From IMG/VR virus record IMGVR_UViG_3300014208_000318, positions 1 to 36,409 of that record: a stretch of DNA of 36,409 nt; one strand, 5' to 3'. The position numbers and the translations under genes were made by a program. The stretch's first letter is position 1; each line of letters begins with the position of its first letter. Positions 16,564 to 36,362 of this stretch are shown one piece after another. A model generated the notes under the pieces. The model was not told the DNA's origin. It worked only from the letters and a program-made list of their open reading frames with translations, and did not search any database. The stretch is from a virus. Lineage: Duplodnaviria; Caudoviricetes.

Positions 16564-16752
16564 TCAGCGCCGCCCGAACAGCGAGCGGATCAATGCGGAG
16601 AAGATCTGCGCGACCACGGGGCCGATGATCCGCGTCCCGATCCGTGCCGGCACCGTGCCGCGCGCGACGGAATTCACGTCGCCCAGCACGCGGCTGGTCG
16701 AGTACAGCGCACTGCGCACCTTGCCGATGGTGATGCCTTTTTTCGCGCTCAT
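16564..16752 (-). CDS. Small basic hypothetical protein
   Basis: AGGAGG RBS; overlaps upstream stop; in the leftward operon. Confidence 0.55.
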   Translation of the reverse strand: MSAKKGITIGKVRSALYSTSRVLGDVNSVARGTVPARIGTRIIGPVVAQIFSALIRSLFGRR

Positions 16753-17448: not shown

Positions 17449-17501
17449 GCAACGCACCCTATGCAATGCCGTTGACAAACCGTTGCATGGCATGCAACAC
17501 T
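17437..17501. promoter_or_regulatory. cI/cro control region: 17-bp operators GTTGCA-N5-TGCAAC and rightward promoter
   Basis: Perfect palindrome GTTGCATGGCATGCAAC 17482-17498; imperfect copy 17437-17453; partial copy 17451-17467; TTGACA at 17472-17477. Confidence 0.75.
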
Positions 17502-17507
17502 AGCGGC

Positions 17508-17687
17508 ATGTCAAAGATTTCCGCACAACGAAAAAAGAAGGGCCTGTCGATTCGCGGGCTGGCGCGCGCCGCTGGTGTCGATCCATCCACCGTGTCAAGG
17601 ATTGAGCGCGGGCAATGGCCGAAGGAGCGCACGGCGCTGCTGTTGGCGAAGGCATTGGGGGTCCCGATCAACCGTTTGTTTGTCTGA
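17508..17687 (+). CDS. Cro-like HTH regulator (59 aa)
   Basis: 'RKKKGLSIRGLARAAGVDPSTVSRIERG..LAKALGV'. Confidence 0.85.
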   Translation: MSKISAQRKKKGLSIRGLARAAGVDPSTVSRIERGQWPKERTALLLAKALGVPINRLFV

Positions 17688-17693
17688 AAACCC

Positions 17694-17728
17694 GGCCCGC
17701 CAGGTGTTCCACCACCCGGCGGGCCTTT
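17694..17728 (+). terminator. Hairpin/weak terminator after cro (tR1-like)
   Basis: 13-bp arms 17694-17706 and 17713-17725 (1 mismatch) followed by TTT. Confidence 0.5.
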
Positions 17729-17804
17729 GCAACAGTGGTGACGGACACCACGGCTCGCAGCTTCAGTCTCCGTCATCGCGCCTTTGAGCGAAAGGTGTAC
17801 TTCG

Positions 17805-18269
17805 ATGGCGGACTCACGCATCCCGGCCGACGTCAATGACGCGGTCTATCAACTGGTCAAGGCCTACGGCGCCGACCGGCTCTCGGCCAAGACCGGCACC
17901 CCGGCGGGCACGATCCACAACAAGGCCAACCCGCACGAGACGTCGCATCACAAGCCGACCCTGTCTGACATCCTGATCTGGACCCAGATCACCGGCGACT
18001 ATCAGGTGGTGCAGGCGCTGTGCCGAGCGCTGGATGGCTGCTTCGTCGCGCTGCACACCCGGCAATACGCCACCGACGTCGAGCTGCTGGAGCTGGTCCT
18101 GCAGCGCGACAGGCAACAGGCCGAGTTTGCCGATGCGCTGCTCGCCTCGCTCTCCGACGGCAGCATCTCGGCCGACGACTTCAAGGCCTGCCGTCGCGAA
18201 GGCTTCGAGGTCATCACGGCCTGGCTGGAACTGCTCGGCCGCCTGGAGGGGATGATCGATGCGCACTGA
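17805..18269 (+). CDS. Phage regulatory CII-family protein
   Basis: 'TIHNKANP..HKPTL..ITGDYQVVQAL..GCFV' pattern; position after cro. Confidence 0.75.
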   Translation: MADSRIPADVNDAVYQLVKAYGADRLSAKTGTPAGTIHNKANPHETSHHKPTLSDILIWTQITGDYQVVQALCRALDGCFVALHTRQYATDVELLELVLQRDRQQAEFADALLASLSDGSISADDFKACRREGFEVITAWLELLGRLEGMIDAH

Positions 18270-18465
18270 TGCCCCTCCGGCTTCGATCGCCGCGCGCGGC
18301 ATCACCACCCTGACCGACAACCTGCCGCACGGGGCTGGGCTCGACATCGCCAGGGACTTCGCCCGGGTGTTCCGTGACGAAATCGAGACGCGTTTGTTCG
18401 GCTGGCAAACCTCCACGCCGCCGCGCCGTGCCACTGCCCCCGCCACAGATCAATTACCCCGCTGA
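18259..18465 (+). CDS. Hypothetical early protein
   Basis: Overlapping, co-oriented ORF. Confidence 0.45.
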   Translation: MRTDAPPASIAARGITTLTDNLPHGAGLDIARDFARVFRDEIETRLFGWQTSTPPRRATAPATDQLPR

Positions 18466-18479
18466 CCGAGGAGACCGCC

Positions 18480-18695
18480 ATGCGCCGCCACTCACCGCAA
18501 CAGCAGTTCGTCGAAGCATGCCAGATCGCCCGCGATCACAACATGTTCGTGGTCGAGAAGCCCGCCCGCCGCGGCGAAGGGACCGACCACATCCTCTACC
18601 GGCGCACGCCGACCCGGCCGTTGCGCGTCGGCAGCCGGCGCGACGTCGGCGATTTCCGCCGCTTTGTCGAAAAGTGTGCCGGGCTCAAGTCATGA
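18480..18695 (+). CDS. Hypothetical early protein
   Basis: GAGGAG RBS. Confidence 0.6.
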   Translation: MRRHSPQQQFVEACQIARDHNMFVVEKPARRGEGTDHILYRRTPTRPLRVGSRRDVGDFRRFVEKCAGLKS

Positions 18696-18826
18696 GTCTG
18701 CGCGACTGGATCGACGCGGCGCTGTACGTCACTGGTTTCTTTCTGGCCCTGGGGCTTTGCGACCCCGCCCCGGCGGCCACTTTCAATGGGGTCGCAATTG
18801 CAGAAATTTCATCGGGAGCGAACCGG

Positions 18827-19504
18827 ATGGACAGATATTTGACCGAGGACGAGCAGGCCCGCCTGCTCAAGACCCTCAAGGAAGCCGCCTGCCGTGACGT
18901 CTACGGCCGGCGCGACGATGCGATGGTGAGGGCGCTGATCCACAGCGGCCTGCGCATCGGCGAGTTTTCGCGCATCACCGTGGGCGATGCACTGGAGGCC
19001 CTGAAAACCGGCTACCTCTTCATCCCCAGGGAGCACCGCAAGGGCGCCAGCCAGGGACTGGCCAGGGACCACAGCGTCTATCTCACCCAGGCGCTGCGCG
19101 CCGACCTCGGCGACCTGCTCAAGGTCCGCCACGAGCTGCGCGACACCGACTGCCGCGTCGATGACCGCCTGCTGGTCGGCCGCGCCGGCGACAGCATGAC
19201 GGTGCGCGCGCTCGAGCTGCGCTACAAGCAGCACGCCACGCTGGCCGGGCTGGCCAGGACCAGCCCGCACTGGCTGCGCCACACCCGGGCGCAGAACATC
19301 ATGCTGCGCTCCACCGCGCGCGATCCGCGCGGCGTGGTGCAGCGCGCCCTGGGCCATAGCAGCATCAAGAGCAGCGGCGTGTACACCGCCACCCCGCGCG
19401 AGGAGGTCGAAGCGGCGCTACGCGAGATCGACGCCGCCGCGGATCCGCGCCGCGTCACCCGGGCGCAGCTGCGCCGCGCCTTCGAGGGGAGGGCGGCAGC
19501 ATGA
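18827..19504 (+). CDS. Tyrosine recombinase, catalytic domain only (alternative in-frame start 18692)
   Basis: 'SGLRIGE' (R), 'RKG' (K), 'HWLRH', 'LGHSS..GVY' (Y); GGGAG before ATG 18827. Confidence 0.85.
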   Translation: MDRYLTEDEQARLLKTLKEAACRDVYGRRDDAMVRALIHSGLRIGEFSRITVGDALEALKTGYLFIPREHRKGASQGLARDHSVYLTQALRADLGDLLKVRHELRDTDCRVDDRLLVGRAGDSMTVRALELRYKQHATLAGLARTSPHWLRHTRAQNIMLRSTARDPRGVVQRALGHSSIKSSGVYTATPREEVEAALREIDAAADPRRVTRAQLRRAFEGRAAA

Positions 19505-19962
19505 CGACTGCCACCCTCGCGCCGCGGCCAGCCGGTGTCATGCGCCCGCCATCGGAAAAGGTCACCGTCACCCTGACGCTATCCGCCGACAAGGTCGAGA
19601 AGCTGCACGCCTTCATGGCCTCCGACACATGGGAGAAGGCCGAGGCGGCCCGCAAGGCCAACCTCGAAGGCTGCATCGACAGCCTGGAGCATGCCGTCAA
19701 TGTCGCCATCAGCCATGTCGGCACCAGCGGCGGCCGCACCTTCGCCACCTTCCTGGCCAGCCTCTACAACGGTAATCGGGTGAAAGCCGATGTCTCGGAC
19801 ATCATGTCCCTGGACAGCGCCAACTTCGAGCACCTGCTGAACATCCTGCGCCTGCGCTTCGAAACGCACCGCGAGCCGCACCAGTTCTTCGTGAATGGCG
19901 GCGCCCTGTTCGAGCAGATCATCGCCGACTGGGGTCTGGAAAAGCGCCGGAGGAAATCATGA
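19501..19962 (+). CDS. Hypothetical phage protein
   Basis: ATGA coupling; 'SGGRTFATFLASLYNG..LD' motif. Confidence 0.65.
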   Translation: MTTATLAPRPAGVMRPPSEKVTVTLTLSADKVEKLHAFMASDTWEKAEAARKANLEGCIDSLEHAVNVAISHVGTSGGRTFATFLASLYNGNRVKADVSDIMSLDSANFEHLLNILRLRFETHREPHQFFVNGGALFEQIIADWGLEKRRRKS

Positions 19963-20183
19963 GCTGGCGTCCGCACACGGATCTGCCAGACGCCGGGGAG
20001 GTGGCGATCATCGCCGCGCCCTGTCCGATCGAGACCGGATGGTTCCTGCTGCCACAGTTGTATCGCTACGAGGCGAGCGAGGGGAAGTGGTACGGGGTTT
20101 CCAATGTGCTGCAGCTCAAGCGCGAGGTCTTTCACTGGCTGCCGGCCCACGACGTACTGCAGACGCTGCCGCGCCAACCATGA
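19959..20183 (+). CDS. Hypothetical protein (DUF551-like)
   Basis: GGAGG RBS; 'MSW..DLP..VFHWLP' pattern. Confidence 0.55.
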   Translation: MSWRPHTDLPDAGEVAIIAAPCPIETGWFLLPQLYRYEASEGKWYGVSNVLQLKREVFHWLPAHDVLQTLPRQP

Positions 20184-20446
20184 CCCCCGACATGATCAAT
20201 GGCGGCTTCGAGTTCGCCGCCGGCCTCGCCATCCTCAACCACAGTGCAGCACTGCTGCGCGATCGTCGCGTCGCCGGCGTATCCACCGGCAGCGTGGCCT
20301 TCTTCACGCTCTGGGGCGGCTGGAACATTTTCTATTACCCGCACCTGGACCAGTTCTGGAGCTTCGCCGGCGGCATCTTCGTGGTGCTGACCAATGCGAT
20401 CTACGTGTCGCTCCTGATCCATTTTCGGAGGAACCCCGCCTCATGA
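20180..20446 (+). CDS. Small 3-TM membrane protein (PQ-loop/SemiSWEET-like topology)
   Basis: 88 aa, three hydrophobic helices, 'LRDRRVAGVS' loop. Confidence 0.6.
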   Translation: MTPDMINGGFEFAAGLAILNHSAALLRDRRVAGVSTGSVAFFTLWGGWNIFYYPHLDQFWSFAGGIFVVLTNAIYVSLLIHFRRNPAS

Positions 20447-20988
20447 ATGCCCCCCTGGTATTGCCCACCATCCAGACCGTCAGCGGCCGCTATTTCCCGC
20501 TGCTGGCGCCGACCCCGGACGACATCCGCATCGAGGACATCGCTCACCACCTGTCCAACATCTGCCGTTTTACCGGCGCCGTGCGCGAGTTCTACAGCGT
20601 CGCCCAGCACTCGGTCTTGGTCTCGCAGATCGTGCCGCCGCAGGACGCCCTGGCGGCCCTGCTGCACGACGCCAGCGAGGCCTACATCACCGACATCAGC
20701 AAGCCGCTTAAGCCGCACCTGGGCGGCTATGCCGAGATCGAGACGCGCATCATGGAAGTGGTGCTGCAGGTCTTCGGCCTGCCCACCTGCCTGCCGGATT
20801 CGGTCAAGCGCGCCGACCTGATCCTGCTCGCCACCGAGAAGCGCGACCTGATGCCGGCGCACGGCGACGACTGGGATCTGATCCGCGACATTCCCCGCCT
20901 GCAGGAGGAGATCGTCCCGCTGCCGCCCCGGGCTGCCCGGGCGCGCTTCATGGATCGCTTCTGCCAGTTGTACCGGAGGCCGTCATGA
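20443..20988 (+). CDS. HD-domain phosphohydrolase (YfbR/5'-deoxynucleotidase-like)
   Basis: 'DIAHHLSNICRFTG..FYSVAQHS..LLHDASEAY..D..LATEKRDL'. Confidence 0.85.
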   Translation: MNAPLVLPTIQTVSGRYFPLLAPTPDDIRIEDIAHHLSNICRFTGAVREFYSVAQHSVLVSQIVPPQDALAALLHDASEAYITDISKPLKPHLGGYAEIETRIMEVVLQVFGLPTCLPDSVKRADLILLATEKRDLMPAHGDDWDLIRDIPRLQEEIVPLPPRAARARFMDRFCQLYRRPS

Positions 20989-21206
20989 GCGCCGCAGAAG
21001 GATGGGGGACTCTTTCCGAAAAGCGCTTCATCGATGGCATCGGCCGTCACTCCCTGATCGCCGCAGACCGCGCGCATCTGCTTCGCAACTACATCGAATC
21101 CCTGTCTCGCCGTTATCGGTGGGGGAGCATCGACCGTCACGCGATCGAGGTTTACACCGCCCGTCTGTTGCAGATCCATGCCGGGGAGGGCGCGCTTCGT
21201 GGCTGA
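20985..21206 (+). CDS. Hypothetical protein
   Basis: GGAGG RBS; ATGA coupling. Confidence 0.55.
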   Translation: MSAAEGWGTLSEKRFIDGIGRHSLIAADRAHLLRNYIESLSRRYRWGSIDRHAIEVYTARLLQIHAGEGALRG

Positions 21207-22173
21207 CAAAACCCACATCGAATGGACCGACGCGACCTGGAACCCGGTCACCGGCTGCAGCAAGGTCAGCGCCGGTTGCAAACATTGCTACGCCGAACGA
21301 GATTGGGCGCGGCTGTCCGCCAATCCGCACACCCGCTACCACGGTCGCGCCTTCACTGACGTGCAATGCCATGGTGACGTGCTCACGCTGCCGCTGCGCT
21401 GGAAGCGGCCGCGGCGGATCTTCGTCAATTCCATGTCCGACCTGTTTCATGAGTCGGTGCCGGATATTTTTATCGCCGACGTGTTCGGCATCATGGCCGC
21501 GGCGCCCCAGCACACCTACCAGGTGCTGACCAAGCGCCCGGAACGCGCGCGCTGGCTGCTCGGCAACAACGGGATCCTCAACTTCTACACCGCAGCCGAG
21601 GAGTGCGCAGCGATGTATAGCCGCGCCTATGTTGATTGGCCGCTGAAGAATGTCTGGCTCGGCGTCAGCATCGAGGACCAGGCCACGGCCGACGAGCGGA
21701 TCCCGATCCTGCTGGATACCCCGGCGTGGACGCGCTGGGTGAGCGCGGAGCCGCTGCTGGGGCCGGTCGATATTCTGGGCTATCTCGACGGACTGGTGGC
21801 CAGTGCGGACATAAGCCGGCCCAATGTCGATTGGCTTGTCGTCGGCGGAGAGAGTGGCCCCAACGCCCGGCCGATGCATCCGGAGTGGGTGCGTTCGCTG
21901 CGCCATCAGTGTGTGGAGGCTGCCGTTCCATTCCTGTTCAAGCAGTGGGGGGAGTGGTTCCCGGCGAGTTTTCTGCCGAAGGACACCATGCTTCCCGCGC
22001 GCCGCTGGGGCTGGATCAGCGAGAACGGCGGCCCGGCGGAGATCAACGACTTCGGCCCGTTCAAGGACGAGTTCGCGCATCACGAACTGATGGGGCGCGT
22101 CGGCAAGAAACTCGCCGGCCGCCGGCTCGACAACCTTGTGCACGACGACTATCCAGCGGAGGTGCCGTTCTGA
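21199..22173 (+). CDS. Phage Gp37/Gp68 (DUF5131) radical-SAM-like protein
   Basis: 'IEWTDATWNPVTGCSKVSAGCKHCYA', 'FVNSMSDLFH', 'GGESG', 'FFKQWG'-like. Confidence 0.9.
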   Translation: MADKTHIEWTDATWNPVTGCSKVSAGCKHCYAERDWARLSANPHTRYHGRAFTDVQCHGDVLTLPLRWKRPRRIFVNSMSDLFHESVPDIFIADVFGIMAAAPQHTYQVLTKRPERARWLLGNNGILNFYTAAEECAAMYSRAYVDWPLKNVWLGVSIEDQATADERIPILLDTPAWTRWVSAEPLLGPVDILGYLDGLVASADISRPNVDWLVVGGESGPNARPMHPEWVRSLRHQCVEAAVPFLFKQWGEWFPASFLPKDTMLPARRWGWISENGGPAEINDFGPFKDEFAHHELMGRVGKKLAGRRLDNLVHDDYPAEVPF

Positions 22174-22571
22174 TGAAAGCACTGAGCATTCTGCAGCCGT
22201 GGGCCTGGCTGATCGTCAATGGGCAGAAGGACATTGAGAACCGCACCTGGGGAACCAGCTTTCGCGGACAGGTATTGATCCACGCCGGAAAGACGTACCC
22301 GAAGCGGGAACTGGAAGACGACATCGAATACTGGGGCAGGCTCTACCCAGACTTCCCGAGGCAACGGGATGGCATGATCGGCGGGATTGTTGGTGTTGCA
22401 ACCATTGTCGACTGCGTAACAAAAAGCGACAGCAAGTGGTTCAACGGTCCGTATGGCTTCGTGCTGCGCGACGCGAGACCGCTTCCATTCATCCCCTTCC
22501 GCGGCATGCTCGGATTCTTCAGTGTTCCGGAAGACGTGCTTGGCGCCATCGGGGAGGGCCTCCGCCCATGA
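22173..22571 (+). CDS. ASCH domain protein 1
   Basis: 'ALSILQPWAWLIVNGQKDIENRTW..RG..LIHAG'. Confidence 0.9.
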   Translation: MKALSILQPWAWLIVNGQKDIENRTWGTSFRGQVLIHAGKTYPKRELEDDIEYWGRLYPDFPRQRDGMIGGIVGVATIVDCVTKSDSKWFNGPYGFVLRDARPLPFIPFRGMLGFFSVPEDVLGAIGEGLRP

Positions 22572-22951
22572 ACGCCATCACCACCGAAGTCTCCATCTCG
22601 TCGATCGCCGCGTTTTCCGCCGACGGGCACGTGTACCGCGCCTTCGGCAATCTGCTGGCGGTCAAGGGCGGCGAGCTGCTGCTGGTGCCGATGGGCCGCA
22701 CCACGGGCGACCTGCGCCAGGTCACCGACGGCTGCCCCGTGCCCTGGTCCGAGGCCTGGGCGGCGCTGGATTCGCTGCCGCAGGACGCCATCCCGATCAC
22801 GCCCGAGGCCATGTGCGACAGCTTCGCCGCCCTGGCCTTGATCACGCCCTACGGCTGGCTCTCCGACGAGATCCCGCTCGGCGCCGGCGCGCCCGACGCG
22901 CTGCGGCTGATCCATGTCTCGGGCATTCGTTACGTCAGGGTGCCGCTGTGA
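22568..22951 (+). CDS. Hypothetical protein
   Basis: ATGA/GTGA coupling on both sides. Confidence 0.6.
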   Translation: MNAITTEVSISSIAAFSADGHVYRAFGNLLAVKGGELLLVPMGRTTGDLRQVTDGCPVPWSEAWAALDSLPQDAIPITPEAMCDSFAALALITPYGWLSDEIPLGAGAPDALRLIHVSGIRYVRVPL

Positions 22952-25155
22952 GCGCACCGATCCTTACGGCCGCTGTGATCGCCGACATTGCCGGCGTCTA
23001 CGACGGCAAGAGCGAAACGATCGCCGCCCTGATGGCGAAGCACAGGCTGGCGCGCCACAACGTTCACCGTGCAGCAAGGCTCGGTGGCTTCAAGACCCGG
23101 CGCCAGCGCATCGACTGGACGCAGGAAAAGGACGACTACCTGCGCCAGAACTGGGGCAAGCTGCCGCCGGCGGAGATCTATGCCCACCTCGGCGTATCGG
23201 AAGGCACCACGGCGGTTTTCAACCGCCTCAAGCGCATCGGCCACTCCACGCGCAACAACGAGGATCTGACGATCTACGATATCGAGCACCTGACCAAGAT
23301 CGATCACCGGATCTGGCGGCGCTTCATCGATGACGGCTGGCTCAAGAGCTACGAGGAATTCGGCCGCGACGGCCAGGTGTGGTCGCGGCGCGTCAAGCTG
23401 GAATCGATCGCCCGCTTCCTGCGGACGCACCCGGAGGCCTTCAACTACGCCGCGGCCGACAAGTACGCGATCGCCGTGCTCGAGCTGGCCAAGCTGCCGC
23501 CGGCGCCGCGCTTCATGCTGGTGACCTGCCGCTCTGATAGTTGGCAGGATGGTACCCGGGCGACGCCGACCGGGGCCAAGATCCACCACGGCGAGATTGC
23601 GCTGGTCGATCGCGAGCACAGTTTCAGCATGGAGAGCTGCGCCGCGATCGGCGGTACCGATGTCTGGGCGACGCTCTACGAAAACCCGTGTTGCCCGCGC
23701 TGCGGCTGCAAGGTGAGCCGCTTCAGCGAGAAGGCCGTGTTCTCCGACACCGACCAGGGCGAGGGCAGCACACTCAACGCGATCGCCGGCAAGCTGGGGC
23801 TGACCTGGGCTGATGGCCGCTTCCTGGCGGCCGATGGCAGCGTGGTGGGCGAGCACGAGCTGCTGCAGTACGTGTTCAGCACCAAGCGCAACCCGGGCAA
23901 GGCCTTCGGCACCTTTCGCCGTATCCTGGAAGCCGGCATGAAGGTGGCGCCGCCCAATCCGGTACCGGCCGAGCAGCTGCTGCCCAATGTGCTGCGCTAC
24001 GAGCTGCGCGAGGGCCAGCAGGCCGCGTTCGCGTCCTTCGTCGAGAGCGGCAACGTCGGCGTGTACTGGCCGCCTGGCATCGGCAAGATGTATTTCCTCG
24101 GCATGGTGTTCTCGCGGCTCGCCGGCGAGCATGCGTTGTTCGTGCACACCCGCACCATCCGCGACCAGTGGGTCGCCTTCTTCCGCGAGCACGGCAATGT
24201 GCGGGTGGTCTGCCACTGGAAGCCGTTTCACTTCCGAGTGGATATCCTCGACAACGCTGGCCAGGTACGCAGCACGGTGCGGATCTTCAGCTACATGACG
24301 CGCGAGGTGTTCGACGACTGGCGCTTCGGCGTGGTCGGCTTCGACGAGGCGCAGTTCCTGCCTGGCAACAACGCCAGCCGGCTTTCGATGCTGAAGTCGG
24401 ATTACCGCGTCGGCCTCTCGGCCACCCCCTTCCGCGAGGACGGCCGCGCCGGATTGATTCAGTTGATGACCGGCACCGCGCTGGGCGAGGACTGGCAGGA
24501 ATTCCGCGACGCCGGCGCGATCGCCGACGTGCCGGTACGAGTCCTGATCGTCAAGGACCTCGAGCACAAGCACCGCGCCCTGGCGCGCATCGTCGGCCGG
24601 CGCAAGACGATCGTGTTCTCCGACGCGATCGCCGACGGCAAGCGCATCGCCGCCGAGCTGCACCTGCCCTTCATCCATGCCGCGACCGAGAAGCGCCTGG
24701 AAGTGCTGGCCAGCCACCGCGTGGTGGTGATGTCGCGCGTCGGCGACTGCGGCATCGATACGCAGGACCTCGAGGAGGTGATCGAGTTCAACTTCCACCA
24801 CGGATCCCGCGCGCAGTCCCTGCAGCGTATGGGCCGGCTGCTGCACTCGCGCAACCCGCTGCGCCACACCGTGATGATGACGACGAAGGAATTCTCGCTG
24901 TATCACAAGCGGCTGTCCGCGCTCGAGGGCAAGGGTTTCCGGATCCATATCGAGATCGACAAGGACCGCAAGCCGCGCGGCCGCCCGCCGGCGCCGAAGC
25001 CGATCAGCGTTTGGGCCCAGATCCTGGGCGCGACGCCGGCCAGGCGCACCACGGCGCCGCTGGAAACCAACGCCGACAAGCGGGCGCGGGTGATGCGTCG
25101 GATTACCGAGCGCAGCGACAAGGCGATGGCTGTCGCGCAGGGAGGTGCGGCATGA
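22948..25155 (+). CDS. SF2 helicase-like protein (XPB/Rad25-like) with long N-terminal extension
   Basis: Q-motif LREGQ, PPGIGKM, FDEAQ, GLSATP, QRMGR; N-terminal HTH-like region and CCPRC. Confidence 0.8.
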   Translation: MSAPILTAAVIADIAGVYDGKSETIAALMAKHRLARHNVHRAARLGGFKTRRQRIDWTQEKDDYLRQNWGKLPPAEIYAHLGVSEGTTAVFNRLKRIGHSTRNNEDLTIYDIEHLTKIDHRIWRRFIDDGWLKSYEEFGRDGQVWSRRVKLESIARFLRTHPEAFNYAAADKYAIAVLELAKLPPAPRFMLVTCRSDSWQDGTRATPTGAKIHHGEIALVDREHSFSMESCAAIGGTDVWATLYENPCCPRCGCKVSRFSEKAVFSDTDQGEGSTLNAIAGKLGLTWADGRFLAADGSVVGEHELLQYVFSTKRNPGKAFGTFRRILEAGMKVAPPNPVPAEQLLPNVLRYELREGQQAAFASFVESGNVGVYWPPGIGKMYFLGMVFSRLAGEHALFVHTRTIRDQWVAFFREHGNVRVVCHWKPFHFRVDILDNAGQVRSTVRIFSYMTREVFDDWRFGVVGFDEAQFLPGNNASRLSMLKSDYRVGLSATPFREDGRAGLIQLMTGTALGEDWQEFRDAGAIADVPVRVLIVKDLEHKHRALARIVGRRKTIVFSDAIADGKRIAAELHLPFIHAATEKRLEVLASHRVVVMSRVGDCGIDTQDLEEVIEFNFHHGSRAQSLQRMGRLLHSRNPLRHTVMMTTKEFSLYHKRLSALEGKGFRIHIEIDKDRKPRGRPPAPKPISVWAQILGATPARRTTAPLETNADKRARVMRRITERSDKAMAVAQGGAA

Positions 25156-25394
25156 GCTCCGTCGAAATCAAGCTGATCGAGCTCACGGTGAGCGTGACGG
25201 ACAACCAGGCCCTGGTCGACGAGTTGCAGACGGTGGTGCTGGATCGCCTCAAGTACCGCAAGGCGATCCGGGAATGCCTGTCGCTGGCCGCCAGTGGGCG
25301 CATCGGCAACGCCCTGGAAGTGCTGCGCGCGGTGTATCCACAAGCGGCCGATCTGACGAAAGTCGGCGCTGGCGAGACGGCGGTGCAGTCATGA
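25152..25394 (+). CDS. Hypothetical protein
   Basis: GGAGG RBS; ATGA coupling. Confidence 0.55.
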   Translation: MSSVEIKLIELTVSVTDNQALVDELQTVVLDRLKYRKAIRECLSLAASGRIGNALEVLRAVYPQAADLTKVGAGETAVQS

Positions 25395-25768
25395 TGCCCT
25401 CCCTCTCGATCCGCCAGCCATGGGCCTGGCTGATCGTCAATGGCCACAAGGATGTCGAGAACCGCGACTGGCCGACGAAGTTCCGCGGCGCGTTTCTGGT
25501 GCACGCCGGCAAAACCAAGGACCGTGAGCAGTACGAGGCGGCCGCCAGGATTGCCGAGGAAGTCGGCATCGAGATGCCATCGATCGACGCGCTGGATTAC
25601 GGCGGCATCGTCGGCCAGTCCTGCCTGCACGGCTGCGTCACGGCCAGCGACAGCCACTGGTTCGTCGGCGAGTACGGCTTCCTGCTGCGCGATTCAAAGC
25701 CGCTGCCATTCGTGCCTTTCCGGGGCATGCTGGGATTCTTCAACGTGCCGCCTGAGGCCATCAAATGA
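25391..25768 (+). CDS. ASCH domain protein 2
   Basis: 'LSIRQPWAWLIVNGHKDVENRDW..RG..LVHAG'. Confidence 0.9.
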   Translation: MMPSLSIRQPWAWLIVNGHKDVENRDWPTKFRGAFLVHAGKTKDREQYEAAARIAEEVGIEMPSIDALDYGGIVGQSCLHGCVTASDSHWFVGEYGFLLRDSKPLPFVPFRGMLGFFNVPPEAIK

Positions 25769-25808
25769 GCCGCGGCCTGGTGACGCTTCGTCGATCGCGG
25801 AGGTCGGC

Positions 25809-26054
25809 ATGAACATCGAACACGGCGAGAAGCTGTTCGAGTTCTCCAGCTTCAGTGACTGGTGCGACACCGCCAAGTCCAAGTTCTTCACCGCCAAGGT
25901 CTCCGGCGCCGACGTGGTCTGCGTCGATCGGCGCAGCCGCCTGTGCGGATGGGGCAAGCATTTCATGCAGGCGCGTGACGAGAACGCCTTCCCGGTCGAG
26001 GTGTTCCGGCTGCGCGCGGACATGAACATGCGGAAGCAGGGCGAGCTGCTGTGA
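25809..26054 (+). CDS. Hypothetical phage protein
   Basis: GGAGG RBS; 'CVD..RLC..G.HFMQARDENAFPV' motif. Confidence 0.6.
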   Translation: MNIEHGEKLFEFSSFSDWCDTAKSKFFTAKVSGADVVCVDRRSRLCGWGKHFMQARDENAFPVEVFRLRADMNMRKQGELL

Positions 26055-26260
26055 GCGCCAGGGTCTGTCGCATCTGTGGCGAGGAGCGAAACGAGAAGAC
26101 CGGTGCCTGCCGGAACGGCTGCGATTGCGTGACCGCGCGACCGGTGGGCGCTGAGTTTAGCGTCCAGGTTGTCAGCCAAGCCGAGGATGCGCCGGTGCGG
26201 ACCGTGGCGCACGGCGGGCTTCGCCGGATGCCGACGACCAGGAATGAGGCGGGGGAATGA
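26051..26260 (+). CDS. Hypothetical Cys-rich protein
   Basis: GTGA overlap; CxxC..C.C. Confidence 0.4.
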   Translation: MSARVCRICGEERNEKTGACRNGCDCVTARPVGAEFSVQVVSQAEDAPVRTVAHGGLRRMPTTRNEAGE

Positions 26261-26550
26261 CGCCTCCATGGACCTCGGCCCTCGAGGCGGAGCTGCGCTA
26301 CCTCATCCGGCGTGAATACCGGCGCCAGCAGCGCGCGGATGCGAGCTGTCGAGGCAAGAACGGATTCCAGACGGCGAAGCATGCCCACCAGGCCATTCCG
26401 GCGCGCGCCATGCATGGCTACGTCACCGTCTACCGCTGCGAGGTGTGCCGTTTGTGGCACGTCGGCAGCCACCTTTCCCCGAAGCGGCGTCTGGACCGCT
26501 CCGGCCATGACCCATTTCCAGAGACCACAACCATCAGGAGAAGCTCATGA
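26257..26550 (+). CDS. Small zinc-ribbon-like protein
   Basis: 'C.GK..F..YRCEVCRLWHVG'; ATGA-coupled to DGR target 1. Confidence 0.6.
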   Translation: MTPPWTSALEAELRYLIRREYRRQQRADASCRGKNGFQTAKHAHQAIPARAMHGYVTVYRCEVCRLWHVGSHLSPKRRLDRSGHDPFPETTTIRRSS

Positions 26551-26918
26551 GCAAAGCACAGTGGATCAAAGACAACCTCAAGCCCGGCGAAGAATACGCC
26601 GGCATCATCCTCGGCAAGAACGGCGAGCAGGACTATCACCTGATCCTGCTGCCCGGCGAGATCGAGCGCGCCGGCTGGGATAAGGCGATGGCTTGGGCAA
26701 AGACCGGCACCGGTCAACTGCCCACCCGCCGCGAGCAGTCGCTGCTGTTCGCCAACCTGCGCGAGCACTTCAAAGCGGCCTGGTACTGGTCCTGCGAGCA
26801 GCACGCCGCCGACTCCGGTTATGCCTGGGACCAGAGCTTCACCAACGGCGACCAGGACGACAACCACAAGAGCTACGAAGGCCGTGCCCGCGCCGTCCGC
26901 AGATTGCCCATTCAGTAA
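26547..26918 (+). CDS. DGR target protein 1 (DUF1566/CLec-fold-like, 123 aa)
   Basis: 'W..AMAWA..LPTRREQSLL..WYWS..AW.Q.F..G..RARAVRR'; C-terminal VR. Confidence 0.9.
   Translation: MSKAQWIKDNLKPGEEYAGIILGKNGEQDYHLILLPGEIERAGWDKAMAWAKTGTGQLPTRREQSLLFANLREHFKAAWYWSCEQHAADSGYAWDQSFTNGDQDDNHKSYEGRARAVRRLPIQ
26798..26904 (+). repeat. Variable repeat VR1
   Basis: 107 bp; 6 mismatches to TR, all at TR adenines. Confidence 0.95.
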
Positions 26919-26951
26919 TTCATCAATTCATCCATTTCAGGAGCGCACACA

Positions 26952-27401
26952 ATGAACATCACCCTTGACGCCATCAAGGCCGAACAGTCGAAGATTGCCG
27001 CGATGATCGCGGCCTTCGAGCAGCAGCCGTCCTACCCGATCACCATCCCCTTCCCGACACTCAACGAGGGCGAGCAGTTCATCGGCGTGATCATCAGCGC
27101 CGACGGCAGCAAGCGCCACGCGCTGATCCTGCTCCCCGGCGAGAAGACGGACATCAAGTGGGACCAGGCAATGGACTGGGCGAAGTCGATCGGCGGCGAA
27201 CTCCCCGACCGCTGCGAAAGCGCGTTGCTGTTCGCCACCATGAAAGATGAATTCAGCCCCGAGTGGTACTGGACGCGCGAGCAGCACGCCGCCGACTCCG
27301 GTTGTGCCTGGGTCCAGGGCTTCGACTACGGCTACCAGAGCCTCAACCGCAAGAGCTACGAAGGCCGTGCCCGCGCCGTCCGCAGATTAGAAATTCAGTA
27401 A
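26952..27401 (+). CDS. DGR target protein 2 (DUF1566/CLec-fold-like, 149 aa)
   Basis: AGGAG RBS; paralogue of target 1 with an extra N-terminal helix; C-terminal VR. Confidence 0.9.
   Translation: MNITLDAIKAEQSKIAAMIAAFEQQPSYPITIPFPTLNEGEQFIGVIISADGSKRHALILLPGEKTDIKWDQAMDWAKSIGGELPDRCESALLFATMKDEFSPEWYWTREQHAADSGCAWVQGFDYGYQSLNRKSYEGRARAVRRLEIQ
27281..27387 (+). repeat. Variable repeat VR2
   Basis: 107 bp; 12 mismatches to TR, all at TR adenines. Confidence 0.95.
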
Positions 27402-27428
27402 TTCTGTCATTTGATTTTCATCATCAGC

Positions 27429-27794
27429 ATGGCACTCCACACCGACCTGCCGATCTACAAAGTGGCCTACGACCTCTTTGATGTCTGCACGGACCTCGCC
27501 AAGAACATGGCCCGAGATTTCAAGACGGGCATCGGCGGCAAGCTCCGTGACGAATGCATCGAGATCGTGACGCTGATCTTTCGGGCGAACGTCGCCCAGG
27601 ACAAGACGCCGCACCTGGACACGCTGATCGAGCGTGTGCAGGTGATCGAGCTGATGCTGCGCCTGTCCTGCGACAAGCACCTGATATCGAGAGGCCAGTA
27701 CGCCAAGGCAGTCGAGCTGACGCGTAGCGTCGCCCGGCAGGCCAGTGGATGGCGCCGCGCATCTTTCGCCAACGCACGTTCGCCCGCTTCATGA
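27429..27794 (+). CDS. avd: Avd-like accessory variability determinant (four-helix bundle)
   Basis: 'LPIYKVAYDL..RDFK..IG..LRLS.D..LIS..QY..RQASGW'; between targets and TR. Confidence 0.85.
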   Translation: MALHTDLPIYKVAYDLFDVCTDLAKNMARDFKTGIGGKLRDECIEIVTLIFRANVAQDKTPHLDTLIERVQVIELMLRLSCDKHLISRGQYAKAVELTRSVARQASGWRRASFANARSPAS

Positions 27795-27940
27795 AGGTCA
27801 AGGCCGTCATGACTGAGCGACTTTTTAATCTGGTCGTGCCGCTGGCTCACAAGGCCACCGACATGCGCACTTGCGATACCGCCGGCAGCCGCCGGGACAG
27901 GTCCGGCGCAGTTCCCGTGCCGAGGATTCGGCACGGTGAC

Positions 27941-29185
27941 GTGGATAGCACGACAGGACGCAGCACGCCGCCGACTCCGGTTATGCCTGGAACCAGAACT
28001 TCAACAACGGCAACCAGAACAACAACCACAAGAGCTACGAAGGCCGTGCCCGCGCCGTCCGCAGATCAAACCGCGCGCCACCCTGCTGATGTTTCTTTCA
28101 CCGAGCTGGTCGAAGCGTATTTCGACTGCCGCCGCACCAAGCGCAACAGCGCCGCGGCGCTGGCCTTCGAGCAGCGCCTGGAGCCTAACCTCGCCCGGCT
28201 GTACCAGGAGCTGGTGGCGGGCGCCTACCGCCCCGGCCGCAGCATCTGCTTTGTCGTCACCCGGCCGCGGCCGCGCGAAGTCTGGGCGGCGGAGTTCCGC
28301 GACCGGATCGTCCATCACCTGCTCTACAACCGGATCGCGCCGCGCTTTCACGCGGCCTTCATGACCGACAGCTGCGCCTGCATCCCTGGGCGCGGCACGC
28401 TGTACGCGGCGCGGCGGCTGGAAGCCAAGATCCGCAGCGCGACACAGAACTGGAGCCGGGCGGCCCATTACCTGAAGCTGGACCTGGCGAGCTTCTTTGT
28501 CTCGATCGACAAGCGCATCCTGCGCGATCAGCTTGCGGCCCGCGTCGTCGAGCCCTGGTGGATGGCGCTGGCCGAGACCATCCTGTTCCACGATCCGCGC
28601 GAGAACTTCGAGCTGCACGGCTCGCCGGCGCTGCTCGATCGCGTGCCGCCGCACAAGCGCCTGGCCAACCAGCCGGCGTACCTCGGGCTGCCGATCGGCA
28701 ACCTCTCGTCGCAATTCTTCGCCAATGTCCACCTCGACGCGCTGGACCAATTCGTCAAGCACCGCATCGGCGCCCGGCATTACATCCGGTACGTCGATGA
28801 CTTCGTGCTGCTCCATGAGTCGCCGCAGTGGCTCAACGCCGCGAAGGCAGAGATCGAGGCCTTCCTCGCCAGCCGGCTGAGTCTGCGCCTCAACCAGGGC
28901 AAGACGATCCTGCAGCCCATCGAGCGCGGCGGCGACTTCGTCGGGCAGGTGATCAAGCCCTGGTGCCGCACCACGCGCCGGCGCACCGTGGCCACGGCGC
29001 TACAGCGCACCGCCGCGATGCCAGCCGAAGATCTGTTCGAGACCGCCAACAGCTATTTCGGCCTGCTGCGTCAGGCGGGGAGCAGCCACACCGATCGCGC
29101 CAGGCTGGGCAACCTGCTGCGGCATCGCGGGCACTGCGTCAATGGCGCCCTCACGAAAACTTTCAGGGTTTCCGGGGCTCGATAG
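27941..29185 (+). CDS. DGR reverse transcriptase (start uncertain; candidates include GTG 27941 and ATG 27983; conserved core from ~28097)
   Basis: 'RDRIVHH', 'LKLDLASFF.SI', DGR signature 'LPIGNLSSQFFAN', catalytic 'YIRYVDD'. Confidence 0.95.
   Translation: MDSTTGRSTPPTPVMPGTRTSTTATRTTTTRATKAVPAPSADQTARHPADVSFTELVEAYFDCRRTKRNSAAALAFEQRLEPNLARLYQELVAGAYRPGRSICFVVTRPRPREVWAAEFRDRIVHHLLYNRIAPRFHAAFMTDSCACIPGRGTLYAARRLEAKIRSATQNWSRAAHYLKLDLASFFVSIDKRILRDQLAARVVEPWWMALAETILFHDPRENFELHGSPALLDRVPPHKRLANQPAYLGLPIGNLSSQFFANVHLDALDQFVKHRIGARHYIRYVDDFVLLHESPQWLNAAKAEIEAFLASRLSLRLNQGKTILQPIERGGDFVGQVIKPWCRTTRRRTVATALQRTAAMPAEDLFETANSYFGLLRQAGSSHTDRARLGNLLRHRGHCVNGALTKTFRVSGAR
27960..28066 (+). ncRNA. 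DGR template repeat (TR)
   Basis: Adenine-rich master copy with 8 AAC codons in the VR frame; identical to VR1 and VR2 at all non-A positions. Confidence 0.95.
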
Positions 29186-29221
29186 CCCGAAGCCTCAACC
29201 ACCATCTTCCTAGCCCGACCC

Positions 29222-32020
29222 ATGGCCACCATCGAAGAACTCAAATCCCGCATCGACCTTCACGACCTTGCCGACAAGCTGGGGCTGAAGCGCGGCGCCA
29301 GCGGCAACTATCATTCGCCGCATCGCAAGGACGAAAACCCGTCGCTGTCGGTTTACGTGCACAACGGCGTGCCGGGCTGGAAGGATCACGCCGGCGGGCC
29401 GGAGGCGAAAGGCTCCTGCATTGACCTGGTGCTCTTCGTCGAGGGCGGCGATGTCGCCGGCGCGGTTAAGCGCCTGCACGAGCTCTACGGCTGGCCGCTG
29501 GACCGACCCAAGGGCCAGGGGCAAGGGCAGGGGGCCAGCACCGAGCCGCAGCGCGAGAAAAGCCGCGCCGAGTACATTGCCGACCGATGCCTGACCGAGA
29601 CCAAGCGCGCCTTCGACTACCTGGTGGAGGAGCGCAAGATCACGCCCGACGTCGCGCAGCGCGCGATCGCGCGCAAGATGGTTGGCTTCAACGACTGGAC
29701 CAGCGCCAAGATCGAGGCTGGCCAGCATGGCCACGGCGGCGCGGCTTGCGCTTTTATCGTGCGCACCCTGAATCCGGGCCACGTGGTGGCGGTAGATCTG
29801 CGCTACCTCGACCCGACGCTGAACGGCGGCACCAAGACGCAGTGTCAGGGCGAGAAGCGCGGCTACGGCTGGACCAGCGACTTGAAGCGCCTGATGGCAG
29901 CCGAGCGGGTGATCTTCGTCGAGAGCCCGATCAACGCGCTGTCGGTGGAGTGCGCGCTGCGCCATCCGCGCGTCGCGGCCTTCGCCATTCGCGGCGTGGC
30001 CAACACGGATCTGGACTGGACCTGGATGCGCGGCAAGCAGGCAATTCTCTGCATGGACAACGACAAACCCTTCCCGGCGCTGACCGAGAAGGGCGAGCCG
30101 CACCCGATGGCGGGGATCCGTCCAGGCTTGCAGGCGGCATGGTCGCTGCACGAGAGCATGACGGCGCTGGACATCTCGGCGCTGCTGGTGAGTCAGGAGG
30201 AGTGGGAGCACAACGACGTCAACGACATCCTGAAGGCGGAAGGGCCGGACGCGCTGAAGTCGCTGCTGGGCAAACTGGAGCCCTGGTTGATTCCTGGCAT
30301 GGTCGGGAAGGTCGACGGCGCCAAAAAGCGCGTATTCCTGCCGGCGCACCACTTCGGTGTCTATCAGGACTATCGCGTCAAGGAAGACTTCACCTCGATC
30401 TTCGCGATTCGCAAGGTACGCAACGCCGACGGCGAGGAGCAGGAGATCCCGTATTACAAGGATCTGGCGGGCTTCCGCATCGCCTCGATCTCGCGCGTGC
30501 GGATCCAGTCCGCCGGCGCGACCATGACCGGCGACGACGACAGCCAGCCCAAGACACTGTTCGCGGTGTCCGTGCAGACCACGCGGCACGGTGCGATGCT
30601 GGTGCGCAAGGTGGTGGAGGACGAGAAGCTGCACAACATCGACTCCTGGAAGAAGTTCGGCCCGGTGTTCACCCAGGTACCCTTCCTGCGCATGGTGAAT
30701 CTGCTCGAATGCGGCGCCCACATCGGGGCGCGCGACGCGGCAAACTTCGTCGGCCTGTGCTTCAAGGACGGCGAGCTGAAGGTCAACGAGGGCCCGGACT
30801 GTTACTTCACCAGCCCGGAGCAGCAGTGTCCTTACCACAACCTCACCTTCCCCACGGGAACGCGGCAGGACGCCCGCACGGTGATCGCGGCGTATCAGCA
30901 GACCTTCGGCCGCAATGCGGCCCTGCTGGCGCTGATCTGGGGCCTGGGTGCGCACCTGAAGGTGCTGCTCGGCTTCTGGCCGCACATGGAAATGCAGGCC
31001 GACAAGGGCGCCGGCAAGAGCACGCTGATCAAGCGCATGGAGCGCTCGATCGCCTTCACCATGCTCTCCGGCCAGAGCATGCAGACGGAGTACCGCCTGC
31101 TGACCTCGATCAGCCACACCTCGCACCCGGTGGGCTGGGAGGAGCTGTCGGCGCGCCGTCAGGACATCATCGACAAGGCCGTCGGCCTGCTGCAGGAGAA
31201 TTATCAATACACGGTGACCCGCCGCGGCGCCGACATGACCGAATATCTGCTCTCGGCGCCGGTGATGCTGGCCGGCGAGGATGTGCCGGTGCGCAGCCTG
31301 ATCGGCAAGCTGGTGCGCACCAAGCTGGTGGTCAAGGGGGCGATCATCGCCGACGACCTGCCGCGCTTCCCGGTTCGCCAGTGGCTGGAGTTCCTGACCA
31401 GCTTCACGCCGGCCCAGGTGCGCGCGATCTACGCCACCTTCAAGGACAAGTGCCTGGAGCAGTCCCGCGCCAGCGGTACCGACGACGGCGCGACGCGCAT
31501 GGCCGGCAATTACGCCGCGCTGCTGACGGCCTGGCGCCTGTTGGCCGAGTTCGCCGAGATAGACGTGCGCCAGGGCGAGCTGCCGACCGACCTGGTGGCC
31601 ACGATGAACGACCACATCAAGGAGACCAGCGCCGATCGCGCGCCCTGGGTTTGGATCCTGGAGACCGCGCTGGCGGAGATCGCTCGCCACAAGTTCGAGG
31701 CACCGCACGTGTTCGATCGCGTCGAAGACGAGGACGGCAAGGGCCACGAGTGCTTGTTGATCCGCACCAGCGACGTGATGCACCACCTGGCCACCACGTC
31801 GGCGCTGAAGGACCTCTGGAACGCCCTGCCGGTCAAGAGCGACCGCATCCTCAAGAAGCAGCTGACGCAGGCCGGCGTGACGATCGGCGATGGCCACGAG
31901 CGCACCATAGGCGCCGGCATGACGCGCCGGCGCGTGGCGCACATGACGGCCCTGTCCCTTTCCCAGCTGGCCGGCTTCGGTCTTCACGCCATACCGACCA
32001 ACGACATTCCCCCACTATGA
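29222..32020 (+). CDS. Primase/helicase replication protein (zinc-finger-like + TOPRIM + P-loop)
   Basis: 'YHSPHRKDENPS..WKDH', TOPRIM 'VESPINALS..CMDND', Walker A 'ADKGAGKST'. Confidence 0.85.
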   Translation: MATIEELKSRIDLHDLADKLGLKRGASGNYHSPHRKDENPSLSVYVHNGVPGWKDHAGGPEAKGSCIDLVLFVEGGDVAGAVKRLHELYGWPLDRPKGQGQGQGASTEPQREKSRAEYIADRCLTETKRAFDYLVEERKITPDVAQRAIARKMVGFNDWTSAKIEAGQHGHGGAACAFIVRTLNPGHVVAVDLRYLDPTLNGGTKTQCQGEKRGYGWTSDLKRLMAAERVIFVESPINALSVECALRHPRVAAFAIRGVANTDLDWTWMRGKQAILCMDNDKPFPALTEKGEPHPMAGIRPGLQAAWSLHESMTALDISALLVSQEEWEHNDVNDILKAEGPDALKSLLGKLEPWLIPGMVGKVDGAKKRVFLPAHHFGVYQDYRVKEDFTSIFAIRKVRNADGEEQEIPYYKDLAGFRIASISRVRIQSAGATMTGDDDSQPKTLFAVSVQTTRHGAMLVRKVVEDEKLHNIDSWKKFGPVFTQVPFLRMVNLLECGAHIGARDAANFVGLCFKDGELKVNEGPDCYFTSPEQQCPYHNLTFPTGTRQDARTVIAAYQQTFGRNAALLALIWGLGAHLKVLLGFWPHMEMQADKGAGKSTLIKRMERSIAFTMLSGQSMQTEYRLLTSISHTSHPVGWEELSARRQDIIDKAVGLLQENYQYTVTRRGADMTEYLLSAPVMLAGEDVPVRSLIGKLVRTKLVVKGAIIADDLPRFPVRQWLEFLTSFTPAQVRAIYATFKDKCLEQSRASGTDDGATRMAGNYAALLTAWRLLAEFAEIDVRQGELPTDLVATMNDHIKETSADRAPWVWILETALAEIARHKFEAPHVFDRVEDEDGKGHECLLIRTSDVMHHLATTSALKDLWNALPVKSDRILKKQLTQAGVTIGDGHERTIGAGMTRRRVAHMTALSLSQLAGFGLHAIPTNDIPPL

Positions 32021-34751: not shown

Positions 34752-36328
34752 ACCAGGCACCGACAGCGATCATTTACGCACGGGTCTCGTCCGTTCGGCA
34801 GGCCGACGACGGGCTCCCGATCGCCAGCCAGATCGAGCAGGCGCAAAACAAGGCTGATCAACTTGGCGCCCGGGTGCTGCGGGTGTTCCGTGACGATGGC
34901 ATTTCCGGCAGAACGTCGCGCCGCCCGGCATTTCAGGACGCCGTCGCCTATTGCGCGACAATGAAGGTGAATCTATTCATCGTATGGAGCACCAGCCGCT
35001 TCGCCAGGAACAAACTCGACGCCGCGAACTTCAAGCTCGAGCTGAAGCGCTACGGGACGCGCCTCGTCTATGTCACCAGCGACTTCGACGTAGACACGGA
35101 CGATGGTTGGTTCCTGGATGGCATCTTCGAGCTGGTCGACGAGCGCTACAGCCGCCAGATCGGCACCGACACCAAGCGCAGCATGATGAAAAACGCCAGG
35201 GACGGCTTTACCAATGGCGGCCGTGTGCCATTCGGTTACCAGGCCGTCCAGGAGGGCAAGCGCAAGCGCCTGAAGCCGCAAGACGACGAGGCCGGCGTGG
35301 TGCGGCACATGTTCGCCATGTACCTGCAGGGGCACGGCACGAAATCGATATCGATGGCGCTCAATGCGGCATCGCGGTTGAAGCGCGGCACCAAGTGGAA
35401 CAAGAACACCGTCAATTACATTATCAAGAACCCGGTCTATGCCGGATTTACCGTCTTCAACCGCAGGGATCACCAGGCCAAGGTGACGCGGCCCGAGTCG
35501 CAATGGGTGAAGACGCGCAGCCACGAGGGAATCATCAGTGAGGAGGACTTCATGACCGTCGCCAACATCATGGAAAAACGCGCACCGCGCGAAAACGGAG
35601 GTTCGCCGCACAGCAATTTTGTCTTCACGGGCCTGCTGCGCTGTGGCCAGTGCGGGGCGTCGATGCAGACCGAGAGCGCCACCGGCCGAAGCGCCACGTA
35701 TCACTACTACAACTGCCGATCCGCCCTCAAGGGACAGGGGTGCCACAACAGGCGGATTCCGGCGCAGGAGTTCGATGCCTGGGTGATCGGCGCCATCCTC
35801 GACAAGGTGCTCACCCGTGACCGCATTGCTGAGATGGTGCGCGAGGTGTACGAACTGCGCGGTGAGTGGTACCTAGCTCGGGCCCGCCGGCGCGACGAGA
35901 TCGTGGCGGAATTGCGGACTATCGAAGGCAAGCGCGGCAAGCTATTCGAACTGCTCGAGCTCCACGGGAAGGATGCGCCGAACCTGGGCGACCTCACCAA
36001 GCGGCTGCGCTCGCACAAGGCGCGCCTCGAGGAGCTGGAGGGCGCGCTGATGGCCCTCGAGGACGATGAGGCGCCGGCGACAGACATAAACGAACGCGAA
36101 ATTGACGAAGCCAGTGCGATGATGCGAGAGATCATCGCCACCACAGAGGACCCCGTGAAACTGCGGACCTTCTTCAGCGGATTCGTGGAGCGGATCGTGG
36201 TGGAGGGCAGTACCGTCCGGGTGGAGTACTTCCCGGAGAAGATACTAAAACCGGCCCATATAGGGCCGGTTCATAGCGAGATTGGATGGCTCCTCGACCT
36301 GGGCTCGAACCAGGGACCTACGGATTAA
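34748..36328 (+). CDS. Large serine recombinase (prophage integrase)
   Basis: 'YARVSS' catalytic Ser, 'SG..RPAF', 'SRFARN', recombinase domain, 'LRCGQCG..YYNC..C' zinc ribbon, coiled coil. Confidence 0.95.
   Translation: MNQAPTAIIYARVSSVRQADDGLPIASQIEQAQNKADQLGARVLRVFRDDGISGRTSRRPAFQDAVAYCATMKVNLFIVWSTSRFARNKLDAANFKLELKRYGTRLVYVTSDFDVDTDDGWFLDGIFELVDERYSRQIGTDTKRSMMKNARDGFTNGGRVPFGYQAVQEGKRKRLKPQDDEAGVVRHMFAMYLQGHGTKSISMALNAASRLKRGTKWNKNTVNYIIKNPVYAGFTVFNRRDHQAKVTRPESQWVKTRSHEGIISEEDFMTVANIMEKRAPRENGGSPHSNFVFTGLLRCGQCGASMQTESATGRSATYHYYNCRSALKGQGCHNRRIPAQEFDAWVIGAILDKVLTRDRIAEMVREVYELRGEWYLARARRRDEIVAELRTIEGKRGKLFELLELHGKDAPNLGDLTKRLRSHKARLEELEGALMALEDDEAPATDINEREIDEASAMMREIIATTEDPVKLRTFFSGFVERIVVEGSTVRVEYFPEKILKPAHIGPVHSEIGWLLDLGSNQGPTD
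36245..36271 (-). terminator. Intrinsic terminator downstream of tRNA-Asn (inside the integrase ORF)
   Basis: 9-bp stem AACCGGCCC/GGGCCGGTT (36249-36271) running into TTTT on the minus strand. Confidence 0.7.
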
Positions 36329-36362
36329 CAGTCCGGCGCTCTACCAACTGAGCTATCGAGGA
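36287..36362 (-). tRNA. tRNA-Asn (GTT), prophage attachment locus
   Basis: 76-nt cloverleaf TCCTCGATAGCTCAGTTGGTAGAGC..CTGTTAA..GGTTCGAGCC..GAGGAGCCA. Confidence 0.97.

Follow-up and report, generated by a model that had tools for sequence, protein, structure and literature searches.

The 36,409-nucleotide (nt) Caudoviricetes record IMGVR_UViG_3300014208_000318 of IMG/VR, analyzed over its whole length and referred to below as the window, carries a diversity-generating retroelement (DGR). It is made up of two short target genes (T1 and T2), each with a variable repeat (VR), followed by avd, a structured RNA, the template repeat (TR) and the gene for a reverse transcriptase (RT) (Table 1). Alignment of TR with VR1 and VR2 gave 6 and 12 mismatches, respectively, every one of them at a TR adenine; A makes up 31 of the 107 nt of TR, which puts the chance of 18/18 mismatches at A at ~2e-10. 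The repeat coordinates, mismatch counts and adenine specificity given in the original prediction, which was made from the sequence alone, were all exact. The eight AAC codons of TR are in the reading frame of the targets, and these and every codon change named in that prediction were present: VR1 changes Asn to Asp, Ser, Thr, Asp, Asp and Asp, and the 12 differences of VR2 alter nine codons. The final 38 nt are identical in TR, VR1 and VR2 and GC-rich, and are the putative IMH*/IMH (initiation of mutagenic homing) elements. No stable GC-rich hairpin was found 3′ of VR1 or VR2, where the best folds had -1.5 and -3.3 kcal/mol; a hairpin downstream of IMH is reported for only 34% of DGRs (Wu et al., PMC5758913). 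A third VR was not found in the window, tail genes included, the contig being without head genes.

Table 1. Features of the DGR cassette and its surroundings (positions in the window)
Feature	Position	Strand	Remarks
Target 1 (T1)	26547..26918	+	123 aa, CLec/DUF1566-only; ATG overlaps stop of upstream 97-aa gene
VR1	26798..26904	+	6 A-to-N differences from TR
Target 2 (T2)	26952..27401	+	149 aa, predicted N-terminal amphipathic helix and CLec domain; own AGGAG
VR2	27281..27387	+	12 A-to-N differences from TR
Avd	27429..27794	+	121 aa from ATG; start given by the open reading frame (ORF) caller, TTG 27411
RT-15 structured RNA (Rfam RF03018)	27778..27960	+	5′ part of template RNA
TR	27960..28066	+	31 adenines, 8 in-frame AAC codons
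RT	27863..29185	+	putative start ATG 27863; conserved core from ~28079
Putative early operon	17466..32020	+	divergent from repressor-like gene 17044-17493 (-)
tRNA-Asn	36287..36362	-	overlaps 3′ end of serine integrase (34748-36328)

Avd matched PHROG 3206 (E = 2.6e-27) and, below the gathering cut-off of 40, PF22296 (36.3 bits, E = 8.8e-9). The RT matched PHROG 1423 (E = 4e-111), and its frame was open, with GNLSSQ and YVDD motifs. These searches, together with that of the nearby primase (PHROG 5629), confirmed the gene identities proposed earlier. The gap between avd and TR is filled by a full-length match to RT-15 (167.8 bits versus a gathering score of 82). The structure of RT-15 rests on the Rfam model, because the fold energy of RT-15 plus TR was not above that of shuffled sequences (z = 0.37). 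The main text of Weinberg et al. (2017; PMC5737381) goes no further than speculation on a DGR role for RT motifs beyond RT-10, whereas the present cassette clearly includes RT-15. With adenine-specific TR and VRs, Avd and an RT with intact catalytic motifs, the prediction of an intact two-target DGR was borne out, and we consider it virtually certain that the cassette is genuine and intact.

No in-frame ATG, GTG or TTG was found between TR and the RT core of this phage. Among 37 related cassettes, the RT frame was open through TR in all 37, and 33 had no stop in it over 252 nt. Over that span, the two remaining forward frames were stop-free in 2/37 and 0/37, the three reverse frames in 2, 10 and 2 of 37, and shuffled sequences in 9%. 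A conserved in-frame ATG inside RT-15, at 27863 here, was present in 25/37 cassettes, none of which had an ATG after TR; four cassettes lacking it had an ATG after TR, and eight were left unassigned, mostly through non-match of the motif. On this sequence evidence, the lack of a start after TR, the conserved open frame and the RT-15 ATG together argue that the RT is probably translated through RT-15 and TR, the template RNA doubling as RT coding sequence. With the start at ATG 27863 the frame runs through TR, and the alternative starts here are 27791 and 27809 (open stretch 27791-28079). The RT of the Burkholderia cenocepacia phage Magia is annotated from the same RT-15 ATG, and translation of the RT through the template is likewise reported for Pseudoalteromonas ACA phages and called uncommon there (PMC10612066).

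Against Lcl_C/DUF1566 (PF07603), T1 and T2 scored 22 and 20.1 bits, under the gathering score of 34.9 that longer members of the target family exceed. The structure of T2, predicted with a pLDDT of 94, consists of an N-terminal helix (residues 5-23) and then a CLec domain. The best solved match to this model was Bdellovibrio Bd2740 (Z 13.2, rmsd 2.3, 103 aligned residues); the values for Legionella Lcl were Z 13.0, rmsd 4.1 and 114 aligned, and the match to Mtd (1yu0) was lower than both (Z 8.3). A PDB sequence search returned only Lcl (E = 0.23), and matches in the ESM Atlas were unnamed, mostly viral clusters. Structure prediction had been proposed as a check on the description of the targets as CLec/DUF1566-like; the CLec part held, in the predicted fold of T2, and the DUF1566 part stands as a sub-gathering profile match for both proteins. 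In the predicted structure, the variable codons of T2 map to strands 118-123 and 129-133 and the intervening loop. A heptad (L5, I8, Q/H12, I15, I19, F22) is conserved in the T2 helix, and the modeled helix thereby suggests oligomerization. Scaffold residues were conserved across 108 target-family sequences, with no conserved cysteine among the invariant columns of that alignment. Neither a hydrophobic N-terminus nor a lipobox was found in T1 or T2 by a hydropathy/regex screen (not SignalP), and the targets are, as predicted, stand-alone proteins of 123 and 149 aa, on this screen without signal peptide.

The nearest homolog of T2 (P0001, 91% identical) differed from it at 9/10 variable codons and at 5/139 others. 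Among the related loci, the duplicated targets of L040 differed at 0/265 nt outside VR and at 14/89 inside, all at TR adenines, and those of L015 at 10/341 outside and 14/106 inside. Because close relatives and duplicates diverge mainly within VR, the DGR lineage has very likely been active recently. Outcomes at AAC codons in TR/VR pairs of relatives (698 codons in all) were dominated by Tyr (150), Asp (123), Gly (91) and Ser (85); Asn (67) and Leu (47) were less frequent, and Cys (3), Pro (2) and Ala (0) were rare or absent. By hand arithmetic, ~9 effective residues per AAC site give roughly 10^7-10^8 variants for eight sites, so that the ~15^8 variants per target put forward originally are a theoretical ceiling only and the realized diversity is far lower. 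Residue enrichment (Tyr 120 versus 46-70 expected, counted without three L004 pairs that have no anchor) was considered as a clue to the ligand and rejected, since the BPP-1 RT has the same intrinsic bias, its reported output from AAC being Tyr 14%, Ser 12% and Asp 10% (PMC12875486). Two Gln codons inside VR were unchanged in 161/161 cases; this was rejected as proof of selection, being confounded with the A-before-G context, as A before G was changed in only 2/209 at codon position 2 (TR/VR pairs L001-L056). The outcomes at AAC were also non-independent (Leu CTC 47, Cys TGC 3, Ala GCC 0). The sparing of A before G and this non-independence would stem either from selection or from a sequence-context preference in this clade of RTs.

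T1 overlaps the upstream gene through ATGA at 26547-26550, T2 starts 33 nt after T1 with an AGGAG of its own, and Avd starts 27 nt after T2. The translational coupling claimed for both targets is thus supported for T1 and not for T2. From the cro-like gene to T1, 16/19 gene junctions overlap, and the putative operon encodes cro-like and CII-like proteins, a tyrosine recombinase, an HD phosphatase, DUF5131, two ASCH proteins, a helicase, the DGR and the primase. A single early operon is only inferred, because a promoter scan gave 0 hits; terminator candidates were below shuffle level. The tail gene J ends at 15205, 11.3 kb from T1, in agreement with the prediction that the targets lie more than 11 kb from the tail genes.

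This placement was conserved among relatives. T2 homologs numbered 1,101 among 1,119 candidates, the target family formed 2,416 clusters at 50% identity (E up to 0.001, distant DUF1566 proteins included), and 11 phage records matched the RT gene. In all six annotated cultured phages examined (Magia, vB_Sb_QDWS, vB_PL1, Cruim01, LPPA56 and Haboob), the cassette was in the repressor/recombination/integrase region, away from the tail genes. In 51 further loci, members of the family stand in the early region of Mu-like phages, between transposase, MuB and Gam on one side and the late activator on the other, in the leftward arm of lambda-like phages, and in phages of the primase type, to which the present one belongs. 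Three genes per side of 31 cassettes with TR/VR pairs were then counted, leaving out three spurious reverse-strand ORFs: 156 of the 170 flanking genes were co-oriented with the cassette, and tail, head or connector genes made up 0 of the 150 that were scanned, directly or via a cluster representative. The neighbors included RecE/RecT, Gam, ParB, SSB, methylases, integrase, one Lar-like and one Ren-like gene. Temperate phages of the Mu-like, lambda-like and primase types thus share a conserved early-operon context, for which a survey of homologous cassettes had been suggested. Before counting, the duplicates L024 and L048 were dropped throughout, and the partial target of L018 from the target count. 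The 82 targets so counted, in 38 cassettes, had 114-267 aa (median 151), a hydrophobic N-terminus in 2 and a lipobox-like match in 1, and 140 of the best 150 family representatives had <=230 aa. Longer homologs were tandem CLecs or single fusions, to HTH_3 (P0129), an SNF2 domain (P0198) or unnamed segments, with a tail-fiber Pfam domain in 0/50 scanned. The N-terminus of P0125 was considered as clamp-like, a candidate dropped for want of PDB, Pfam or PHROG support. At five loci (L041, L042, L043, L026 and L027), targets without nearby Avd or RT stand beside Sak4, SSB or DNA polymerase genes, and would be either frozen or remote targets.

Since the targets are encoded among early genes and not tail genes, they are likely to act inside the infected cell. 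We regard a non-virion, cytoplasmic location as probable; this part of the original prediction is strengthened by the conserved early context and remains an inference. Our tentative proposal, held with somewhat less than even confidence, is that the targets bind to and inactivate a rapidly changing host protein, a defense component being the likeliest; given a cytoplasmic location, antagonism of a host protein becomes slightly favored. More speculatively, a widespread clade of temperate proteobacterial phages may use the DGR as an antibody-like generator of intracellular counter-defense proteins, with mutagenesis coupled to induction and adjusted by translating the RT through the template RNA. 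In such a scheme the derepressed cro-side operon would, judging from the gene overlaps, co-express T1, T2, Avd and the RT-15/TR/RT transcript. The RT-Avd complex would copy TR with errors at adenines, as is established for BPP-1, and the cDNA would replace VR1 or VR2 independently, giving the products visible here. The changed codons would sit in C-terminal β-strands and a loop of the predicted CLec domain, and the modeled heptad helix of T2 may oligomerize it or dock on a partner. With early timing and no export signal, the ligand would be intracellular, and repeated diversification would pay, as our best guess, where the ligand evolves away, as defense proteins do.

Several observations weigh against this proposal. 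The closest solved folds to T2, Bd2740 and Lcl, are extracellular adhesin tips, and the targets had no PADLOC match. The Tyr/Asp/Ser bias is silent on the ligand because it matches the intrinsic bias of the BPP-1 RT. The related loci are not independent, and their genes were called by an in-house script. The fusions are single sequences, maybe read-throughs or assembly chimeras; a signal-bearing peptidyl-prolyl isomerase is joined to a CLec in P0127, on a 1.4-kb contig and probably a chimera, and the 12 Lcl_C repeats of P0176 lie in a protein of 3892 aa. In Logan contigs, run X1 had one allele per VR, with TR 27990-28028 uncovered, and in run X2, of another study, VR1 was identical to the window and no identical contig covered VR2 or TR; such single alleles are no evidence of inactivity, as contigs drop rare variants. 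A gut-virome survey reports, in its accessible text, no DGR targeting known anti-defense proteins (bioRxiv 10.64898/2026.03.05.709809).

The same early, signal-less anatomy would also suit cytoplasmic binders of proteins of co-infecting phages or resident prophages (e.g. repressors), or of the lysis-lysogeny switch, rather than of host defenses. In Magia, the gene for the remote target gp57 directly follows the divergent region that lies past the immunity repressor, P0129 is fused to a repressor-type helix-turn-helix (HTH), and cellular cytoplasmic DGR CLecs have been proposed as invader sensors in conflict systems (PMC10907252). We nevertheless consider this unlikely, though worth keeping in view: no effector domain is attached or adjacent, the early operon would be silent in a lysogen, and the HTH fusion is one divergent sequence.

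The adhesin-like fold of T2 raises the alternative that the targets are separate receptor-binding modules, docking on the tail or capsid (T2 via its helix) and switching tropism as in BPP-1. The DGR-varied antireceptor of the ACA phages is indeed a separate polypeptide (PMC10612066), and Roux et al. caution that their target cluster PC_00009, discussed below, could hold unknown structural proteins (PMC8144416). However, structural genes were absent from the scanned flanking genes and the same cassette occurs in unrelated phage architectures. In two of the three phages found by primase (L060 and L061), which have the same architecture, it is missing from the stretch examined. The phage also has receptor-binding candidates of its own, in J (11309-15205) and a LamG-domain protein (7055-10051). 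A virion role is accordingly improbable in our view.

About equally improbable is a largely selfish or neutral passenger, in which the retroelement would spread from one phage early region to another and maintain cheap targets that bring little benefit. The patchy presence of the cassette, the loci with an RT fragment only (4/51; L013, L037, L044 and L054) and the lack of VR variation in the sample contigs fit such an element. Scaffold conservation over the 108 sequences argues otherwise, as do target-family genes that persist without Avd or RT match in the stretch examined (11/51 loci) and cassettes that carry 1-4 targets, some remote; the constancy of the Gln codons would too, but is confounded as described. 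Soluble lectins released at lysis, binding extracellularly to cell surfaces or rival virions, would have a fitting lectin/adhesin-like fold and need no signal peptide, but the genes are placed early, not late, and conserved cysteines are lacking among the invariant columns, which makes this very improbable.

The cassette type is already known: it is printed for Magia, and a relative is catalogued as clade 3/PC_00009. Magia (NC_070954; genes 44-47 and 57; PMC7883833) has the same order of short target, T2-type target, avd, TR and RT, likewise in the recombination-to-integrase arm, with T2 49% and RT 69% identical to those of this phage. Unlike this phage, which has a tail tip of the lambda J type and a primase gene adjoining the cassette, Magia has a contractile tail and, at a remote site, a third target. 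Gafford-Gaby et al. (2021; PMC7883833) described the Magia DGR with its short targets and suggested adaptation or host range; an intracellular role was not argued. Among the rows listed in Roux et al. (2021; PMC8144416), the genome id of L057 has one DGR entry, given as viral, Proteobacteria, PC_00009, clade 3 and in the RT cluster of Wu reference t046; the L057 RT is 66% identical to the present one, an indirect link by identity that is consistent with this clade. The viral target cluster PC_00009, classed there as non-structural/unknown, is a broad mixed cluster discussed together with the Legionella DGR, and the accessible text has no early-operon analysis. In category 'd' (DUF1566/CLec2) of Wu et al. 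(2018; PMC5758913), about half are short DUF1566-only proteins, and two targets are reported for 13% of DGRs; LdtA, the exemplar of the category, is a lipoprotein on the cell surface, whereas T1 and T2 have no lipobox. The accessible text of PMC10053308, PMC6199706 and bioRxiv 2024.10.15.618418 does not treat this target family. No functional study of the family was found in literature titles and abstracts (most subscription papers and bioRxiv supplements were outside coverage), nor was virion proteomics of cassette carriers found in the literature. The BPP-1 DGR (mtd-avd-TR-brt) is arranged in the same order, follows the adenine rule, has AAC codons and a CLec-fold target, and likewise gives output rich in Tyr, Ser and Asp; here, by contrast, the targets are two tiny early genes, VR is not followed by a GC-rich hairpin and the RT frame passes through TR. 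Mtd is a 381-aa tail-fiber tip. Here neither the tail-module placement nor the fiber domain of the BPP-1 type is found, the targets being CLec only and distant from J.

The window is a single 36.4-kb contig of a temperate phage. The gene order is neck, lysis, tape measure, LamG-domain protein, tail tip J and a repressor-like gene facing cro-like and CII-like genes; then come a long early-type gene run, the DGR, the primase gene and the genes for two recombinases, one tyrosine and one serine (the integrase). The serine integrase ends inside a full tRNA-Asn, so the overlap is read as a probable prophage-host attachment junction. Three recombinases (tyrosine 18692-19504 and 33011-34018, serine 34748-36328) occur in this one phage, and the same trio is present in L010, L034 and L060. 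An XPB-like helicase gene lies between two ASCH-domain paralogs (22173-22571 and 25391-25768), which are 70-76% identical over two blocks. The LamG-domain protein (998 aa), between the tape measure and minor tail genes, has no PHROG match and is a candidate receptor-binding protein. A small transglutaminase-like/BTLCP cysteine-protease-like gene (15724-16170) closes the tail cluster. Behind the repressor-like gene, a 104-aa gene (16749-17063, -) with a weak PADLOC match to PDC-S48 (E = 2.5e-7, 73/512 positions) is possibly a lysogeny-expressed accessory gene. The best DNA matches to the window were from groundwater metagenomes, and the closest T2 relatives with an organism label were from Rhodocyclaceae, Undibacterium, other betaproteobacterial bins and one bin labelled Omnitrophota.

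The paradigm of phage DGRs is receptor switching on tail fibers. This phage adds one more member to a catalogued DGR type, not a new system, and its targets are a very small natural variable scaffold. Because the family is large and present in cultured phages, the function of the targets is directly testable. If early, signal-less CLecs of 115-205 aa do bind intracellular partners, phages would own a programmable, hypermutating library of inhibitors, and each VR allele would point to a host defense or competitor protein.

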